Assembly (NCBI GenBank): GCA_018818465.1 | Contig: JAHIRU010000009.1 | Coordinates: 1 to 43,847, forward strand | DNA length: 43,847 bases | Origin: Nanobdellota archaeon | GTDB taxonomy: Archaea; Aenigmatarchaeota; Aenigmatarchaeia; QMZP01 | Direction: 5' to 3' | Shown here: in pieces, positions 8,664-43,090 of the stretch | Numbering within the stretch: the stretch's first letter is position 1 | Layout: the number at the start of each line of letters is the position of its first letter | Translations under genes and position numbers: made by a program | Notes under the pieces: model-generated | Database searches by the model: none | Seen by the model: only the letters and a program-made list of their open reading frames with translations | Told to the model about the DNA's origin: nothing

Positions 8664-9586
8664 AACTTACCTTCTTCAATAACAACTTTACCATCAACAG
8701 AAATAGTTGGTTTATAGAAAACGTTATCTATATGAACACTGTTTTGCACCTTGCCGCCGAGCGATTTGTTCGTCCCGAATGCTATATGAGCTGTTCCCAG
8801 AACCTTTTCATCCTCAAATGTAAGCCCGACTATTTTGGCTTTGGGATTTGTTCCTATGCCCAATTCTGCAAGATTGGTTCCTTTATCAACGCTGGTTAAT
8901 AGTTTCCAAAGATCTTTGTTTTCACAATCAACCATCTCCCCACCTTCAACATATATCTTAAAAGGCTTCTTAACCAAACCCATGCAAGTTGCATCAATAA
9001 CTATCTTGCCTTCTGACTTCTTTTCCAAAGGGGCAAAAGCAACCTCTCCATCCGGAAGGTTTAGAAGCTTTCCTGATTCGTGCGCTATGCCACAACAGTT
9101 ATGAAACTTTCTTTCTTTACTTTTTTTTCCTCTGAAAAGCGTGATGTCTGTTCCTAGGCGCGTTTCTACATGAAACTTGTTTCCTTGGAGCTTTTCAATG
9201 AGCTCATCATTCGTCTTTTTCAGTGTGATGTAATCCAATGGTATTGCACGTAGGAAAGTGTCCTTTGTTATGCCAGGCATTGTCACAATCCGCGCACCCT
9301 GCTTGAGTGTAGATTGTATAGCGTTTGTGTGTGTTAAAGAGAACGTTGTAGGCGCAACAATTACATTAAAACCGCTCAAAATCTTTTCACGGACAGAATC
9401 AGATGGCTCTTCCCCAGCTCTTGTTGTTTTTGGCATCAAAAGAAGCTCACAACTAGAAATCTCTTTACCGACATCGAAAAGTGTTTTAGCTATCTCCTCT
9501 TTATCCTTGTCATAAATAATTAGCGCTTTCTCATTTTTCTTGAAAGCGAGACATTCTTTCCAGACTATTTGCGCAGTTTTATACAT
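8660..9586 (-). CDS. M29-type (AmpS/PepS-like) aminopeptidase
   Basis: 308 aa with LPDGEVAFAP, ELGIGTNPKA and DEKVLGTAHIAFG blocks typical of thermophilic metalloaminopeptidase family M29. Confidence 0.75.
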   Translation of the reverse strand: MYKTAQIVWKECLAFKKNEKALIIYDKDKEEIAKTLFDVGKEISSCELLLMPKTTRAGEEPSDSVREKILSGFNVIVAPTTFSLTHTNAIQSTLKQGARIVTMPGITKDTFLRAIPLDYITLKKTNDELIEKLQGNKFHVETRLGTDITLFRGKKSKERKFHNCCGIAHESGKLLNLPDGEVAFAPLEKKSEGKIVIDATCMGLVKKPFKIYVEGGEMVDCENKDLWKLLTSVDKGTNLAELGIGTNPKAKIVGLTFEDEKVLGTAHIAFGTNKSLGGKVQNSVHIDNVFYKPTISVDGKVVIEEGKF

Positions 9587-33238: not shown

Positions 33239-34948
33239 ATGAATGCAAATAAAAAATTACAAAGCGAAGTTTTGAAACTTTTACAAAAGCATGTTTCAAA
33301 AAAACAAGCAGAAGAACTTTTAGAAAAACCGCCAGAAGAAATTGGTGCAGATTTGGCTTTGCCTTGCTTCGCTTTTGCAAAAAAATACAGAAAAAACCCT
33401 GCAGAAATAGCAAAAGATATTGCATCAAAACTAAATCCTTCTGGTTTAATCAGAGAAGTAAGACCTGTTGGCCCTTATGTAAATTTTTATGCAGATTCTG
33501 AAAAAATCGCTTCCATGGTATTGAAGGATGTACTGAAAGAAAGGAACGCTTACGGGAAATCGAAAACAGGAAAAGGAAAGAGGTTGATGGTAGAATACGT
33601 ACAGACAAATCCCTACAAAGCCTTTCACATAGGACACGTCAGAAACATAGCACTTGGAGAATCTTTATGCCGTGTTTTAGAATCAACTGGAAATAAAATT
33701 ATAAGAGCGAATTACCAGGGCGATATAGGTCCGCATGTAGCAAAAGCTCTTTGGGGGTTGATAAACATCTACAATTCAAAACCACCTAAAGACGTCGACA
33801 AGGGTTTGTGGATAGGAGAAGTTTATAGAGAATCAAATGAAAAGGCATCTCTAAACCAAAAAGTTGCTGAGGAAATTGATGAAATAAATAAAAAACTTTA
33901 TGATGGTGACAAGAAATTATTACCACTTTGGAAAAAAGGAAAAAAATGGAGTCTTGATTATTTTGATAAAATTTACAAAGACTTTGGCGCAAACTTTGAC
34001 AGGCTTTATATGGAATCTGAGGTTGAAAAACCTGGCAGAAAGATAGTTAAAGAATTGCATAAAAAAGGCATAGCAGAAATAAGCGAAGGCGCTATGATAG
34101 TAGACCTGAAAAAATACAATTTACCAGTCTTTCTTGTTTTAAGAAGAGATGGCATAGCACTCTATTCAACAAAGGATCTAGCACTGGCTGAGATGCAGGA
34201 AAAGGAATACCATCCAGACAAAATAATACACGTTGTTGGATCTGAGCAGAAGCTTCATTTCCAGCAACTGATAAAAACTATTGGAATTTACAACAAAAAA
34301 CTTGCTGACAAGGAATACCATCTTTCCTATGAACTAGTTATTCTTCCTTCAGGCAAGATGAAATCTCGTGAAGGAAAAGTCATATTGTATGGCGATCTCA
34401 AAAGAAAAATGTACGCTCTTGCTTTGAAAGCTACGAAGGAAAAGAACCCTTCTTTGCCTGTTGCGCAGCACAAAAAAATAGCCGAGCAGGTTGCATTAGG
34501 TGCAATAAAATATAATATGATTATGCAATCGCCTGAAAAGGTTATAGTTTTTGATTGGAACCAAGCATTGGATTTCCAGGGAAACAGCGCACCATACGTT
34601 CAGTATACGCATGCAAGGGCTTGCTCTATTTTAAAAAAGGCTAAAGTAAAAACAATTAAAGATTTTGATCCATCCCTTTTAGTAGACAAAAAGGAAATAA
34701 AACTCATAAAAACGATATCAGAATTTCCACAGGTCGTTGAAAACGCCGCAAAAGATTACAGACCTCATTATATTGCCAGCTATGTTCACAATCTCGCATC
34801 CATATTTAATGAATTCTATCAAACTCTACCGGTTTTAAAAGCAGACAAGAATACAGCGGCAGCAAGGCTAGCTTTGGTAAAAGCAACACAAATAACATTG
34901 AAGAACGCTTTGCAATTGCTTGGCATTGAAGCTCCTGAAAAGATGTAG
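33239..34948 (+). CDS. argS: arginyl-tRNA synthetase
   Basis: NPYKAFHIGHVRN (HIGH), SGKMKSREGKV (KMSK-like), GAIKYNM, APYVQYTHARACSIL. Confidence 0.93.
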   Translation: MNANKKLQSEVLKLLQKHVSKKQAEELLEKPPEEIGADLALPCFAFAKKYRKNPAEIAKDIASKLNPSGLIREVRPVGPYVNFYADSEKIASMVLKDVLKERNAYGKSKTGKGKRLMVEYVQTNPYKAFHIGHVRNIALGESLCRVLESTGNKIIRANYQGDIGPHVAKALWGLINIYNSKPPKDVDKGLWIGEVYRESNEKASLNQKVAEEIDEINKKLYDGDKKLLPLWKKGKKWSLDYFDKIYKDFGANFDRLYMESEVEKPGRKIVKELHKKGIAEISEGAMIVDLKKYNLPVFLVLRRDGIALYSTKDLALAEMQEKEYHPDKIIHVVGSEQKLHFQQLIKTIGIYNKKLADKEYHLSYELVILPSGKMKSREGKVILYGDLKRKMYALALKATKEKNPSLPVAQHKKIAEQVALGAIKYNMIMQSPEKVIVFDWNQALDFQGNSAPYVQYTHARACSILKKAKVKTIKDFDPSLLVDKKEIKLIKTISEFPQVVENAAKDYRPHYIASYVHNLASIFNEFYQTLPVLKADKNTAAARLALVKATQITLKNALQLLGIEAPEKM

Positions 34949-35251
34949 CTATTTTTTAGTGTACTTCTTGAACCATTTCAGTATAGTCCAGCGAGAAACC
35001 TTAACATCATAACGATGTTTCATTTCATGCTGCACTTCAGAAAGAGACAGGCCTTTACCATAAAGGTTGACGCCTTTCATAATTGTATCCTTTTTGAATC
35101 GCATCCTAAGGAAATTGTCATTGGGTGTATACTTACGATTGCATTTTTTGCATAGTCTTAGATGTCTTTTTGTTGCTTCATTGTATCTGTAGCCACGCCA
35201 TACTGTACGCGTGCTACTGCAGTAAGGACACTTGTCAATTTTGTCTACCAT
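34949..35251 (-). CDS. solo InsA-like Zn-ribbon + HTH protein (IS1-type transposase N-terminal module)
   Basis: CPYCSS...x20...CKKCNRKYT zinc ribbon followed by the HTH GLSLSEVQHEMKHRYDVKVSRWTILKWFKKY. No catalytic transposase ORF follows. Its stop codon is back-to-back with the argS stop (TAGCTA). Confidence 0.6.
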   Translation of the reverse strand: MVDKIDKCPYCSSTRTVWRGYRYNEATKRHLRLCKKCNRKYTPNDNFLRMRFKKDTIMKGVNLYGKGLSLSEVQHEMKHRYDVKVSRWTILKWFKKYTKK

Positions 35252-35569
35252 GTTAATATTTAACTAATAGGGATATAAATAACTTTTTATCCCTTATAAT
35301 TGACAATTATAAAGGAACCGTCCGAATAAGTGCGATAACTTGTTGGACGGTTTAAGTAAACTCTAGTGAGTTTTTAACTCAACCATTGTTGAGCAAGTAA
35401 AAGAAACAATATGTATGGAGCAGGGTGTGCTCCAATATAAGAAAGAAGTCTTTTACCTCCCGAAGTTTATTTAATTCAATATTAATCCCCATTCCTTGAT
35501 GAGGCATATGCTGATAAGACCTTGAAATAACTTTTAAATGTTTGCCACTTTGTTCACTCTTAATGCAGT

Positions 35570-35613
35570 TAATAGAACCCGACACTTGATAAACTAAGCT
35601 AATAGAACCCGAC
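35570..35613. repeat. two copies of a 14-nt direct repeat, 30-nt period
   Basis: TAATAGAACCCGAC at 35570-35583 and 35600-35613. Confidence 0.8.
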
Positions 35614-36129
35614 GTTTACTATGTAAATCATCGGACAGGTACCTCCTGAAAATAGGAATTAGTAAATTTATTCACATAAGAAGTACATAAATATTAATTG
35701 TTTTTAGAAAAACCAGCAGCCCTAGTCACAGACAGTTTCATAACTAAATGTACAATCGCCTAGCTAGGCGTAAGAATACTGCAAGCAGATTCCCTATGTT
35801 ATTAGTTTTTGTTAGAAATGTCTATTTATTGACCAGGGCGCTGGAGTACCAATCAAAAACAGACATCATTGATTGATGTCCGAGCGAGGCCAAAAAAACC
35901 ATTTCAATTTCCATTCCTAACAAATAGCTCTGTTTGTTAAGAAAAGAGATCAGAAACGGTAACTGATGTAATTTCCATATATATTGAGCATAAAATTCAA
36001 AATTAAAAAAAACCACCACCTTGACTTTTTATTTTAAGGAGGTGTTTAAAAAATCTCAAACATGTTTCAGTAAATTATATATCTCTACATATCTCATTTG
36101 CTTGTCAAGGTGGTGTCAATCCGAATCTG

Positions 36130-36187
36130 CAAAAAATAAGTAGCCGTTTCATCCAGAATGGAAAGCTTGTTTTTTCGAAACGGCTAC
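36130..36187 (-). terminator. strong hairpin plus T-tract about 350 nt downstream of the ATPase stop
   Basis: GTAGCCGTTTC (36140-36150) / GAAACGGCTAC (36177-36187) form a perfect 11-bp stem. On the minus strand it is followed by TTATTTTTTG. Confidence 0.6.
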
Positions 36188-36538
36188 ACAAAAGTGTTAC
36201 TCGATCCTCAGGTCGGTCGGGTAAATTGAATAAAACTGATGTGCCCCTGTGTGGAGCATTACGTTGTGAACGATGACGAATTGTTTCGCCGAGTGACTGT
36301 GCCTTAGACAGGCAATACACAACTGCATGATAAAAAACAAATACTACTTTATCAAAAGTTGTCTTTGTTGACCTTTCTCGATCATTTTAATTTCCATAGC
36401 TTATGCTAATGGAAATAATTTCGATATAGATATAGAATAGCATGAAACTAACCCATTGAAACGGGTAACATAACTAAACATGATTATTATTTGTTTGATC
36501 AATTATTTAAAAGTTGTTTGTTTTTAAGAATTTTGGAT

Positions 36539-38890
36539 TTATTTCACGTCAAACTCTACCTTATCAAATTTGCAGTTCTCTTGGAAGTCTCCGATTGTTG
36601 CTACAAAAATTGCCAGACCTGGCTTTCTCAAAGAACGTTTTGCAGCCTGTTGAATTATTATGTTTTTTAATGTTTCATTTGCACAGACAAAGTGCTTGTT
36701 TTCTTTTAATTTTTCATATATTTGATTTCTGTCTGTATAATCAATAAGAGCTACTGGCAGTATCTCATCATCTTTGTTTATCTCTAAGATATCTATCTTG
36801 CGAGTAGCCTTCCAACCTACAAGAGAAAACAACTCAAGCAATTCTGTTATATCCATCTCTACACTGCCTTCATATCTTTGAAATTTGCCGTGAAAAACCT
36901 TTTCTCCCCTATCTGTTAAAAAGTAATAATGAAGTTTGTTCTTGCCGCTTTTTCCTCTAGCTGTTTGAACAAGACCCATGTCTAACAGTGCACCAATCTT
37001 ATCATTGAAAACAGTACCGGATACTCTAATAGCTTTGTATATCTGTGAAGCAAATACTCCATGGCCATTACCAACAACGTCTATAATCTTCCAACCATGA
37101 TCATCTAATTTTTCTATAGGAACGTTTATTACAGTTTCTCCATCTTCCCAATGCTGGTTCTCCTTTTTAGGAGATTTCTTTTCAATTAGTTTCCTTTCGA
37201 ATTCCTTTATTTCCTGAACAACATCATTTTCTTCTATTGGTTCAACAATTTCTTCTTTTATCGGTTTGACATCCTCTTTTTCCTTGATGCCGTTCAAATC
37301 TTCCATCATTTTTTGAGCTGTTTTTTGGAATTCTTTTGCAAGATCCTTTAATTTAGAATCATTAATTGTCTTCTTTGCAGGTTCTGCGTTCTCTATTGCT
37401 TCGTTTTTTCCAACAATATTATCTTCTTTTTCTTCAACATTATCTGCAGTTTCTTCTGCTGATTCATCTGCACTCTTTTCCTGAGGTTCGACCATTTTAT
37501 CATATGTCTTCATGAATTCTGAAACCTTTTCATCTGAAATAACTGTTTTATCTATTTTTACTTCATCGAAACCCATTAAGAATGGTCTCGGGAATTCGAA
37601 GTTTCTGCACAACATAAAACCATGCCCTACAGGAATTCTTCTAAGGTAAACACCCTCTTCCTCATAGTCGAGCCCTAGCATGTGTGATGCATCCAAGATA
37701 TCAGAAGAACCCTTTGTATCAAGACCCAAATTCATGTATATGTGCGTAGATGTGTTACCCAATGCCGGATAAGAAACCAATGATGGGTGCTGATCTGTAT
37801 AAATTATACCAAGTCCCAGTTCTCTGATTTCTCTGAATATAAGATCCATCACAGTTTCTGAACCCATTTTGTTAGCCTTATCACGGTTCAGAACATGGTG
37901 CGCTTCCTCTAAAATTATTACTCCTCTTAATTTCTCTCTCTGATCACTAACCAAAAGCCAGTCTCTTAACCACTGCATTATAATTTCTATGAAAAATGTC
38001 TTGTCGCTGGTGTCTAAAGCATCTAGTTCTAAAATTGTAATTCTACCTTTCCTCAAAAAATCAGAAGGTTTTGTACCAACATCGCAATTGAATACATCTC
38101 CAATTTCCTTGAAACACAAAGATTCCAATGGTCTAATAGCTGTTGATACCCAGTTCTTTTCTCTCATCGGTAGCTTAAGATCTCCGTATTCCTCTATCCA
38201 TCCTTTAATGTCTCTTAATCTTGGTTTTTCTTTTTCATCAAATACACCATCAAAAGACTTAAGAATTATGTGTCTACCACCACCCATTAACCAATAAGCG
38301 TGATCGAACACAGCTGCGAATTCCTTCATCCATTGTGTCATTGAAATGCCGTCAGGCGGTCTTAGTGGGTTGAATTTTAAAGGAGACGCGTTTCTACCAA
38401 CAGTATAAATATCAATTTTATCCTTCAGTTTTGTTTTTAACAGATTTCTATAATTTCTTTTTGAGAAATCAAATATCAAAATCGGAATATCCTCTTTTGC
38501 TAATTCAAATACCATTTTATTCGCAAGATTTGTTTTACCATAACCTGAAGAACCGAATATACCCATGTGCATTAAAAGCCTTTCTTTTTCAAACTTGAAT
38601 GGATACATCTTTTTCTTGCCATAAAGAACACTGCCAAGATTTAACTGGCCTTTAGCAACTGCTTCTTTTTCAGGCGGTTCCATAAGAATACTATCTCTAA
38701 GCTCGTTTTCAGTGAAAACAGCTGCCTTAGCTACATCAATAAGCCCGAAGATTCTTTCTCTTGTATCTTCATCCCCAAGCAAGTATGCTCTGCTGAGTCT
38801 TTCGGCTGTACTTCTACCTAGGATTGGAATAAGTTTCTTAACTTCGCTAGTAAATATTTTTTCTTTTGTTTCTATCATGTTAATCACCAT
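36539..38890 (-). CDS. HerA/FtsK-superfamily (DUF87-like) ATPase fused to a low-complexity linker, a winged helix and an unassigned about 110-aa C-terminal domain
   Basis: Walker A GIFGSSGYGKT (aa 111-121 of the track ORF), Walker B GVIILEEAHH (aa 324-333), IYTDQHPS, LRRIPVGHGFM. An acidic/Lys linker covers aa about 465-585. wHTH GVFASQIYKAIRVSGTVFNDKIGALLDMGLVQ. The ATG at 38890 overlaps the upstream TGA (TGATG). Confidence 0.8.
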   Translation of the reverse strand: MVINMIETKEKIFTSEVKKLIPILGRSTAERLSRAYLLGDEDTRERIFGLIDVAKAAVFTENELRDSILMEPPEKEAVAKGQLNLGSVLYGKKKMYPFKFEKERLLMHMGIFGSSGYGKTNLANKMVFELAKEDIPILIFDFSKRNYRNLLKTKLKDKIDIYTVGRNASPLKFNPLRPPDGISMTQWMKEFAAVFDHAYWLMGGGRHIILKSFDGVFDEKEKPRLRDIKGWIEEYGDLKLPMREKNWVSTAIRPLESLCFKEIGDVFNCDVGTKPSDFLRKGRITILELDALDTSDKTFFIEIIMQWLRDWLLVSDQREKLRGVIILEEAHHVLNRDKANKMGSETVMDLIFREIRELGLGIIYTDQHPSLVSYPALGNTSTHIYMNLGLDTKGSSDILDASHMLGLDYEEEGVYLRRIPVGHGFMLCRNFEFPRPFLMGFDEVKIDKTVISDEKVSEFMKTYDKMVEPQEKSADESAEETADNVEEKEDNIVGKNEAIENAEPAKKTINDSKLKDLAKEFQKTAQKMMEDLNGIKEKEDVKPIKEEIVEPIEENDVVQEIKEFERKLIEKKSPKKENQHWEDGETVINVPIEKLDDHGWKIIDVVGNGHGVFASQIYKAIRVSGTVFNDKIGALLDMGLVQTARGKSGKNKLHYYFLTDRGEKVFHGKFQRYEGSVEMDITELLELFSLVGWKATRKIDILEINKDDEILPVALIDYTDRNQIYEKLKENKHFVCANETLKNIIIQQAAKRSLRKPGLAIFVATIGDFQENCKFDKVEFDVK

Positions 38891-39108
38891 CAATCTTCAA
38901 ACTCGGAGTCATCTCTAGGATTTCCTAACCCGGCTTCCGGAAAAGCATCTAATAAATCGTTTTCAGAACTCCGTCTATAATGATATATTTTAAGATCATT
39001 ACCTACTATCAAATATTTTCCTATATACCTTTCATTTTCATCAACAACAAAACCGTTTTCGTATGGAATTTGTTTTGTTGATTCGTTTGGTTTTAAACTT
39101 AGTTTCAT
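38890..39108 (-). CDS. hypothetical 72-aa protein with acidic C-terminus (operon gene 3)
   Basis: ORF placed with a 1-nt gap after the upstream stop, and its stop overlaps the ATPase start. Confidence 0.55.
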   Translation of the reverse strand: MKLSLKPNESTKQIPYENGFVVDENERYIGKYLIVGNDLKIYHYRRSSENDLLDAFPEAGLGNPRDDSEFED

Positions 39109-40100: not shown

Positions 40101-40149
40101 TCTTTGTCAAAATTTGCTGTATGTATCCCTTTAAGGAGATAGAGAGAAC

Positions 40150-43000: not shown

Positions 43001-43090
43001 TGTTTTATATCTGTAAAATAATTGGTGCCGGAAGTTTAAATAGTTTACAGTTGTAAAACATTATATACGTATCCCTTTAAAGTGATATAT

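Follow-up and report, generated by a model that had tools for sequence, protein, structure and literature searches.

A long gap without open reading frames in a Nanobdellota genome as a candidate small-RNA locus with an anti-Shine-Dalgarno loop

What fills the longest stretch without a sizeable open reading frame (ORF) in a genome that should have no room for one? DPANN archaea cannot yet be cultivated by themselves, and their genomes contain hardly any spare DNA. In the assembly studied here, from a Nanobdellota archaeon (GCA_018818465.1; 872,921 nucleotides (nt) in 99 contigs, completeness 83%), a whole-assembly scan gave 734 stretches without an ORF of at least 80 amino acids, with a median length of 57 nt; three of them reach 1000 nt, one being the interior of the 23S rRNA gene. 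The longest of all is the gap of 1287 nt at positions 35252–36538, between the genes for an InsA-like protein and an ATPase on contig C36, the whole of which (43,847 nt) is the window analysed here. An earlier note on this DNA had described the gap as ORF-less apart from three small ORFs, and so it is: the longest ORFs, of 68, 65 and 71 amino acids, lie on the minus strand at 35379–35585, 35822–36019 and 36105–36320, and none exceeds 71 amino acids. The gap is single-copy in the assembly, and its GC content of 33.4%, compared with 35.9% for the genome, means that there is no overall GC enrichment in it.

On balance we judge it probable that the gap is a small-RNA locus of genus-level distribution, read from the minus strand, with an RNA whose loop is complementary to Shine-Dalgarno (SD) sites and with a partner site for that loop nearby. 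The gap is best read as a series of short constrained elements set in fast-turning spacer, namely a promoter, hairpins, a stem-closed RNA that we call the clamp RNA, an island complementary to its loop, and a terminal module. It displays conservation above the neutral level, compensatory changes, promoter geometry and, in three species, complementarity between loop and island. The earlier note had offered as explanations one or more non-coding RNA genes, a decayed mobile element, or a region serving the replication or partition of an integrated element; the first of these is favoured for the conserved islands, which make up about 40% of the stretch and whose transcription is predicted from sequence, and is not extended to the remainder.

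The gap could be followed in three other species; relatives of this genome carry Aenigmatarchaeota or Nanoarchaeota labels from their sources. The order argS, InsA-like gene, gap and ATPase gene is kept in a sister species (G001) and on the contig of a third species (L059, to which L060 is identical). The order ATPase gene, gap and InsA-like gene is kept in a related species (L058) that has the same arrangement and an ATPase 84% identical in protein sequence, and other genera keep parts of the order. The stretch between ATPase and InsA-like genes is shorter in L059 (about 1020 nt), longer in G001 (1559 nt) and of nearly the same length in L058 (1273 nt). Measured against L058, for which identity at four-fold degenerate sites (73%) and third codon positions (70%) served as the neutral yardstick, block A (about 36441–36500) is 85–95% identical, block C (36009–36128) 85–97% and block B (about 36233–36307) 68–72%, which is near neutral, and the sequence separating the blocks is 40–55% identical. 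In the distal region 35320–36007 alignment to L058 is confined to two islands, 15 and 18 nt long, and to the part with the promoter of the InsA-like gene. Variation within the species was followed in ten contigs from other samples, found by exact look-up of the InsA-like protein and 99.77–100% identical over the locus. They contain one single-nucleotide polymorphism (SNP) in the 1287-nt gap versus 27 in 4368 flanking coding nt (Fisher p = 0.011); 17 of these 27 are at third codon positions, a rate that predicts about 16 in the gap. These strain-level copies are too alike for covariation analysis. Contigs of this population, which lives in groundwater or sediment, derive from ERZ928008/ERR2191545, SRR6514271, SRR6514730 and GCA_018816045.1.

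In block C a perfect stem of 12 base pairs (bp), the clamp, closes a large loop on the minus strand that carries CACCUCCUUA, identical to the end of the organism's own 16S rRNA, whose 3' end on contig C49 reads GGATCACCTCCTTA. The block folds with a z-score of -2.8 relative to dinucleotide shuffles, the comparison used for all folding z-scores given here, and L058 is nearly identical in this region. A covariance model based on two clamp sequences proved too narrow to recover the clamp of L059, which was therefore sought by direct stem search. This clamp has 13 bp of wholly different sequence, including one G-U pair, and encloses 45 nt with the same loop motif, so that ACCUCCUUAA is common to the three species. 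The mean unpaired probability of the motif is 0.68, 0.57 and 0.69 in the three species. A CCUCC-type motif in a loop predicted to be mostly unpaired and, in the three sequences, a stem kept through compensatory change are present, two of the features expected of a small RNA (sRNA) with an anti-SD loop. The tail after the clamp has eight T here and five in L058, and is merely T-rich (TTTATTG) in L059. Read on the plus strand the loop motif is a perfect SD sequence, but one without a usable ORF (spacing 17 nt, 3 codons).

The sequence complementary to this loop, CUAUUUUCAGGAGGU, lies about 390 nt further downstream within one of the two islands of the distal region. The complementarity extends well past the SD core, to 13 of 14 positions in this genome. 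An A-to-G change in the loop of L058 retains the pairing as a G-U wobble. In L059 the flanks of both loop and island have diverged and are still complementary, with approximately 18 pairs, one mismatch and one bulge. The wobbles in this pairing are tolerated on the minus strand only. With RNAduplex the island is, in each of the three species, the best partner that the loop finds downstream of the clamp, the energies being -15.3 kcal/mol here (reached by 5 of 300 shuffled targets), -18.3 kcal/mol in L058 (2 of 300) and -18.2 kcal/mol in L059 (56 of 300). The ORFs behind the island are not conserved: in the three species their lengths are 10, 0 and 24 codons, and they are mutually unrelated and not hydrophobic.

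At the other end of the gap a TATA-box-like sequence, TTTTAAATA, is invariant in all four species and lies 18–46 nt past the ATPase stop codon, and in three of the four it precedes a conserved ATG (ATGTTT) by 22–23 nt. TATA-like 8-mers upstream of the 444 long ORFs of the genome, among the most frequent of which is TTTAAATA, show a peak of start positions at -32 to -27 from the start codon, the geometry of leaderless transcripts. A transcript start at 36481 is predicted because the conserved TATA box stands 22–23 nt before the ATG, as it does in the leaderless promoters of the genome. Two hairpins follow in block A. The stem of hairpin 1 is kept in three species around a variable loop, and a C-to-U change in L058 gives a G-U pair on the minus strand only. 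Hairpin 2 differs from its L058 counterpart by two double compensatory changes and two G-U wobbles; its place is taken by a fully different 7-bp stem in L059 and by 8 bp in G001. In block B, which is absent from L059, one-sided changes relative to L058 preserve the pairing of its hairpins, and the one at 36243–36257 is among the terminator-like sites of the minus strand.

The minus strand is favoured for the RNA locus on the basis of the promoter geometry, the T-runs that follow hairpins, the G-U wobbles and the consensus folding. All three terminator-like sites found by scanning are on that strand, the G-U wobbles of both L058 and L059 are compatible with it alone, and consensus folding gave -78.8 kcal/mol for the minus strand versus -62.3 for the plus strand, a lead of 16.5 kcal/mol. 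The folding signal is local and not uniform along the gap: z-scores are -4 to -6 at 35260–35460 and about -5 at 36300–36420, are strongly negative at 36140–36260 as well, reach -3.5 for the 413-nt minus strand of 36126–36538, and are close to zero at 35420–35860. The five hairpins that the earlier note had listed are all present, and two stronger ones that it did not list were found, with 11 bp at 36140–36187 and 12 bp at 36014–36025/36104–36115, the latter being the clamp. At its distal end the gap has in each of the four species a hairpin, different in sequence from the others, and after it a conserved motif with AGGGATA as its last bases. Since this module follows gene stops elsewhere in the genome, its presence points to the end of a minus-strand transcription unit at 35316–35352. 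The features are collected in Table 1.

Table 1. Positions of the features of the gap and of its two bordering genes in the window.
Feature	Position	Strand	Remarks
InsA-like gene	34949–35251	-	100-aa protein; borders the gap
Motif TTTATAATTGTCAATTATAAGGGATA	35269–35313		conserved; includes palindrome AGGGATA-N12-TATCCCT and TATA box of the InsA-like gene
Terminal hairpin AACCGTCC/GGACGGTT	35316–35352	-	listed in the earlier note; hairpin of different sequence at the same place in 4 of 4 species
Hairpin CTCAAC/GTTGAG	near 35380–35395		listed in the earlier note
Hairpin GGAGCA/TGCTCC	35419–35435		listed in the earlier note
Polymorphic site	35461		the only one of the gap in ten strain-level contigs
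Direct repeat AGTTAATAGAACCCGAC	35567–35613		17 nt, two copies 30 nt apart; repeat family D5
SD-like island CCUAUUUUCAGGAGGUAC	35639–35656	-	18 nt, shared with L058; complementary to the clamp loop
Hairpin GACATCA/TGATGTC	35855–35882 (named arms 35864–35882)	-	listed in the earlier note; 9 bp and five T; called terminator-like
Island AAAUGGUUUUUUUGG	35890–35904	-	15 nt, colinear with L058 within unalignable DNA
Block C	36005–36115	-	perfect 12-bp clamp (36104–36115 with 36014–36025), 78-nt loop, T8 at 36005–36012
Anti-SD motif CACCUCCUUA	36035–36044	-	part of the clamp loop; equals 10 nt of the 16S rRNA tail
T1	36128–36188	-	11–12-bp hairpin, then UUAUUUUUUG; terminator-like; perfect inverted repeat I14
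Block B	36233–36307	-	hairpins 36275–36290 and 36243–36257, the second with U-rich tail; near-neutral identity
Hairpin 2, ATTTCCAT/ATGGAAAT	36390–36416	-	listed in the earlier note; 8 + 3 bp; present in four species
Block A	36401–36481	-	predicted start at 36481 and possible leaderless micro-ORF of 26 codons; 85–95% identical to L058
Hairpin 1	36449–36467	-	ACCC/GGGU stem; kept in three species
TATA-box-like TTTTAAATA	36504–36512	-	27–35 nt past the ATPase stop; invariant in 4 of 4 species (alignment A2)
ATPase gene	36539–38893	-	DUF87/HerA-type, 784 aa; borders the gap

The arrangement of these elements suggests how the locus might work, with transcription, the transcript ends, the strand and the regulatory effect all being predictions from sequence. 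A first unit (unit A) would start at 36481 from the conserved TATA box just past the ATPase stop and would contain the two conserved hairpins and perhaps the 26-codon leaderless micro-ORF. The clamp RNA (36005–36115) would follow further downstream, as part of this transcript or as a transcript in its own right, and would end in eight U. Its stem would hold open a loop displaying the copy of the 16S rRNA tail, a tail that normally docks on SD sites. The fast-evolving remainder of the gap retains the SD-like island, with which the loop could form a duplex of 13–18 bp before the gap terminates in the hairpin and motif module. Such pairing may control the fate or the translation of the transcript that carries the island, a mechanism that we propose with moderate confidence, and the clamp RNA may also pair with other strong SD sites. 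An SD-like site precedes 68 of the 444 long ORFs, and most mRNAs of this organism seem to be leaderless. A bolder version, which we regard as unlikely, would make the clamp RNA a mimic of the ribosome tail, a clamp-held copy of the 16S 3' end with a dedicated, fast-evolving partner transcript, acting as an RNA–RNA switch or decoy that tunes SD-dependent translation. To our knowledge, and from a narrow search of the literature, there are hardly any descriptions of regulatory RNAs from DPANN archaea. If the proposal is true, the locus would provide a compact, testable case of RNA-based control of a minority of SD-led genes and an example of how 'empty' DNA in such genomes can be read, as constrained islands amid fast-turning spacer; if the transcripts are not found, the region would be nothing more than a structured spacer of unusual length.

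Among archaeal RNAs described so far, the nearest parallels are the anti-RBS loops of two Methanosarcina mazei RNAs. The intergenic sRNA154 (in its loop 2) and sRNA41 carry loops complementary to ribosome-binding sites (RBS) and mask the RBS of their target mRNAs (PMC5867862). Like them, the clamp RNA carries an anti-SD sequence in a loop predicted to be unpaired. It has, however, no sequence or Rfam relation to them, its motif sits in a large loop closed by 12–13 bp, and its best predicted partner is a conserved site of the same gap that no conserved ORF follows. Bacterial sRNAs with C-rich or anti-SD seeds, of the RoxS/RsaE and CcsR/alpha-r14 types, are short terminator-ended RNAs with CCUCC-type loop motifs and compensatory changes in their stems; several C-rich loops per RNA are common among them, and their action involves known chaperones or regulons. 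The clamp RNA shares with these the exposed CCUCC-type loop and the compensatory stem changes but is archaeal, is found in three close species only and has a single motif that equals 10 nt of its own 16S tail. In type I toxin-antitoxin loci of the tisB/istR-1 and zorO/orzO type an sRNA is encoded beside its target and pairs over approximately 14–20 nt around the target RBS. The clamp RNA is likewise encoded next to its predicted pairing site, whereas the small hydrophobic ORF that a toxin gene would supply behind the SD-like island is not conserved here, and identification as a type I toxin-antitoxin locus was for that reason rejected.

Several observations weigh against this interpretation. 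With three homologous sequences bearing compensatory changes there are too few for covariation statistics, RNAalifold counts of covarying pairs are alike on both strands, and some hairpins fold better as the plus strand. A stricter definition of hairpin plus T-run gave no enrichment over the genome density, and the 'array of terminators' that had been considered as evidence was dropped because of this count. The loop–island duplex of L059 taken alone is not significant. A canonical TATA box directly before the clamp, 22 nt ahead of it, is present in L058 only, the conserved one being further upstream. Neither the clamp nor its partner island is recognisable in G001 or other genera; around CCTCC in six other genera only weak 7-bp stems were found on either strand. 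Block A has coding-like features, namely three synonymous third-position changes and two 3-nt indels. The flanking coding SNPs are clustered, and the low SNP count of the gap could therefore reflect a sweep or recombination and not constraint.

A different account, to which we grant a limited chance, would see in the gap a long structured zone of 3' untranslated and terminator sequence that belongs to the ATPase operon, and after it a fast-evolving spacer and then the promoter and operator of the InsA-like gene, with the islands serving only as terminators or protein-binding sites and no separate RNA genes. There is no clean T-run from the ATPase stop to block A, so that read-through from the ATPase gene is likely, several elements consisting of a hairpin and a T-run point in the ATPase direction, and the combination of hairpin, T-run and conserved motif is routine between genes in this genome, the distal half moreover not being conserved across species. 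Against this account, 1.3 kb is more than 20 times the median gap in a streamlined genome, the TATA box has the exact leaderless spacing and is invariant in four species, and the conservation of block C relative to neutral sites goes beyond the needs of a terminator. Termination also leaves unexplained why both a loop motif and its complementary partner are conserved.

That the gap instead harbours one or more genes for very small proteins, chiefly the leaderless ORF of 26–30 codons from 36481 with the hairpins as stabilisers or terminators of its mRNA, seems improbable to us. The AUG does occupy the position of a leaderless start codon relative to the TATA box, the stretch VTRFNGL differs from L059 by three changes that are all synonymous and at third positions, and the two 3-nt indels are independent. 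The ORF has 26 codons here, 30 in L058 and 29 in L059, but its frame is not kept in L059 after FNGL, and past codon 13 L059 reads the conserved nucleotides in another frame. G001 has no ATG at the start position, both changes in the N-terminal part relative to L058 are non-synonymous, and the covarying hairpin 2 includes its stop codon. The ORFs behind the distal SD-like sites are, as described above for the island, unconserved (10, 0 and 24 codons), and the micro-ORF would in any case account for just 81 of the 1287 nt. A scan of the gap for an SD sequence plus start codon gave no conserved small protein. Two further ORFs, the 71-aa ORF of the minus strand and one that crosses block C on the plus strand, were rejected as genes, since indels of 1, 2, 9 and 55 nt in L058 break both, the plus-strand ORF being broken by the 1- and 2-nt indels.

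The search for a known identity also covered RNA families, proteins and related DNA, and the locus matches no curated RNA family. Rfam 15 gave no match in the gap at the gathering thresholds (best sub-threshold E-values of 3–10 with E up to 10), and in the homologous gaps of relatives it gave none save one tRNA in G016. ARAGORN found no tRNA in the gap. The RNA of the signal recognition particle (SRP) and that of RNase P lie outside it, on contigs C60 and C61. Boxes of the RUGAUGA/CUGA type at the spacing of C/D box sRNAs were not found by regular expression on either strand, nor did any Rfam snoRNA match rise above noise. Pattern scans of metagenome and genome collections with the clamp-loop motif and the block A motif returned no match.

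That the stretch is what decay has left of an ordinary gene, or of a mobile element connected with the InsA-like gene, strikes us as very improbable. Some sources do name the InsA-like protein 'transposase-like', its gene is inverted relative to G001, and the distal part of the gap turns over faster than neutral sites. Yet six-frame translations of the gap have no match in Pfam or PHROGs. Likewise tblastn with the ORFs and proteins of seven syntenic loci and with the genome's own long ORFs gave chance matches only, and a DNA search of 40 relatives and 371 genomes of the class returned only chance matches of at most 51 nt. Phage records had no match to the gap; it is a single copy in this genome and is present with conserved flanks in four species, and its near-invariance within the species is unlike neutral decay. 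A pseudogene or decayed insertion sequence (IS) was accordingly rejected for want of residual protein similarity, terminal-repeat or target-duplication signatures and further copies, and the genus-wide conservation of gene order also speaks against the decayed mobile element of the earlier note. Frameshifted gene remnants, the alternative outcome that note had named, were not detected, conserved islands were found in the relatives, and the non-coding RNA option stands.

An element acting at the DNA level is scarcely credible, even beside a HerA/FtsK-like ATPase with a DNA-binding domain. It could be a site of replication or of partition, or else an invertible switch bounded by loop and island, which was considered because these two form a 14/15 inverted repeat whose arms start about 390 nt from each other. 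All ten strain contigs have the same orientation, no recombinase was seen among the genes adjoining the gap (no search was aimed at recombinases), and the differences between the arms are of the G-U type, which keeps RNA pairing but not DNA identity. The replication or partition region suggested earlier likewise found no support, the ATPase being syntenic across the family (present in 22 of 24 sampled genomes). An archaeal replication origin was rejected because the only Cdc6_C match of the assembly, the orc1/cdc6 gene, lies on contig C4 and dyads like the origin recognition box (ORB), TTCCA-N-TGGAA, were not found in the gap.

The 15-nt island AAAUGGUUUUUUUGG may be a termination signal. At the position of T1, L058 has another 11-bp hairpin with a UUCG loop. 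The direct repeat AGTTAATAGAACCCGAC lies just downstream, in the minus-strand sense, of the SD-like island and was not found in the relatives. The single SNP of the gap is also the only one, in the ten strain contigs, of a 2.3-kb block (34393–36733) that extends from the end of argS through the InsA-like gene and the gap to the 3' end of the ATPase gene; SNP clusters at 34009–34392 and 36734–37210 flank this block, which fits recombination tracts or a local sweep.

The gap of G001, in the order ATPase operon, 1559-nt ORF-free gap, InsA-like gene and argS, is syntenic and, as judged from sequence, partly homologous to the one described here. The two occupy the same position between ATPase and InsA-like genes and have in common the TATA box, some form of hairpin 2 and, at the end, the hairpin with AGGGATA motif, but the G001 gap has a GC content of 40% versus 33%, no similarity at the level of BLAST, no recognisable clamp or anti-SD loop and a reversed InsA-like gene. 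The inversion includes the promoter of the InsA-like gene (34949–35313 in the window, oriented as in L058 and L059, versus 8690–9090 of locus L041 in G001), and the orientation in G001 is that of most other genera. As this inversion is all that distinguishes the two arrangements, the gene order at this place is ancestral and does not stem from an insertion. In the window the stop codon of the InsA-like gene abuts that of argS with zero spacer. ORF-poor DNA is found downstream of the homologous ATPase gene in other genera of the family too: approximately 0.7 kb in G008 and, directly downstream, 2.0 kb in G016 (L044, 3282–5337), 2.3 kb in G017 (L045, 5032–7318) and 4.3 kb in G009 (L047, 4686–9005), the last being striking for a genome of approximately 1 Mb. 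These four stretches have no detectable similarity to each other, nor do the last three resemble the gap.

The InsA-like gene was found in 14 of 41 sampled genomes, mostly near the ATPase gene. Its product resembles InsA of IS1, a transposition inhibitor with zinc ribbon and helix-turn-helix, in being a small protein with these two parts and in the name transposase-like given to it by some sources; unlike insA, the gene is single-copy and syntenic, has no transposase partner or IS ends, and tracks the AGGGATA motif. Because of these properties, the motif co-occurrence and the palindrome AGGGATA-N12-TATCCCT that covers its promoter, the protein is probably an autoregulated DNA-binding protein and not an IS fragment, which would re-label a 'transposase-like' neighbour as a probable regulator with a predicted genome-wide binding motif. 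The 16-nt core of the motif, TCWMYTWWWAGGGATA, occurs 14 times in the genome against approximately 0.1 expected by our estimate, and the reversed pattern used as control not at all. It is present in 11 of the 14 sampled genomes with the InsA-like gene, often right beside it, and in 2 of the 27 without, the 41 genomes being related and the count not a formal test. In the window it lies on the minus strand at 35288–35303, 40124–40139 and 43070–43085. The recurrent module to which it belongs, a GC hairpin with T-run and a motif of approximately 30 nt (TT..AT.T.TCACTT-AAWAGGGATA), occurs 14–29 times in the genome, typically just 3' of gene stops and approximately 60 nt ahead of the next start codon.

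The runner-up among the ORF-free stretches of the assembly, on contig C5 (4664–5895, locus L005), has 1232 nt and 31.9% GC; it neither matches Rfam nor is similar to the gap. On contig C61 (374–4168, locus L006) the 23S rRNA match spans 3795 nt compared with the 2987 positions of the model, and the gene therefore probably contains one or more insertions or introns totalling approximately 800 nt. The RNase P RNA candidate on the same contig (6587–7011) scores 57 bits, the Rfam threshold being 84, and with 425 nt compared with 288 model positions it is divergent or expanded.

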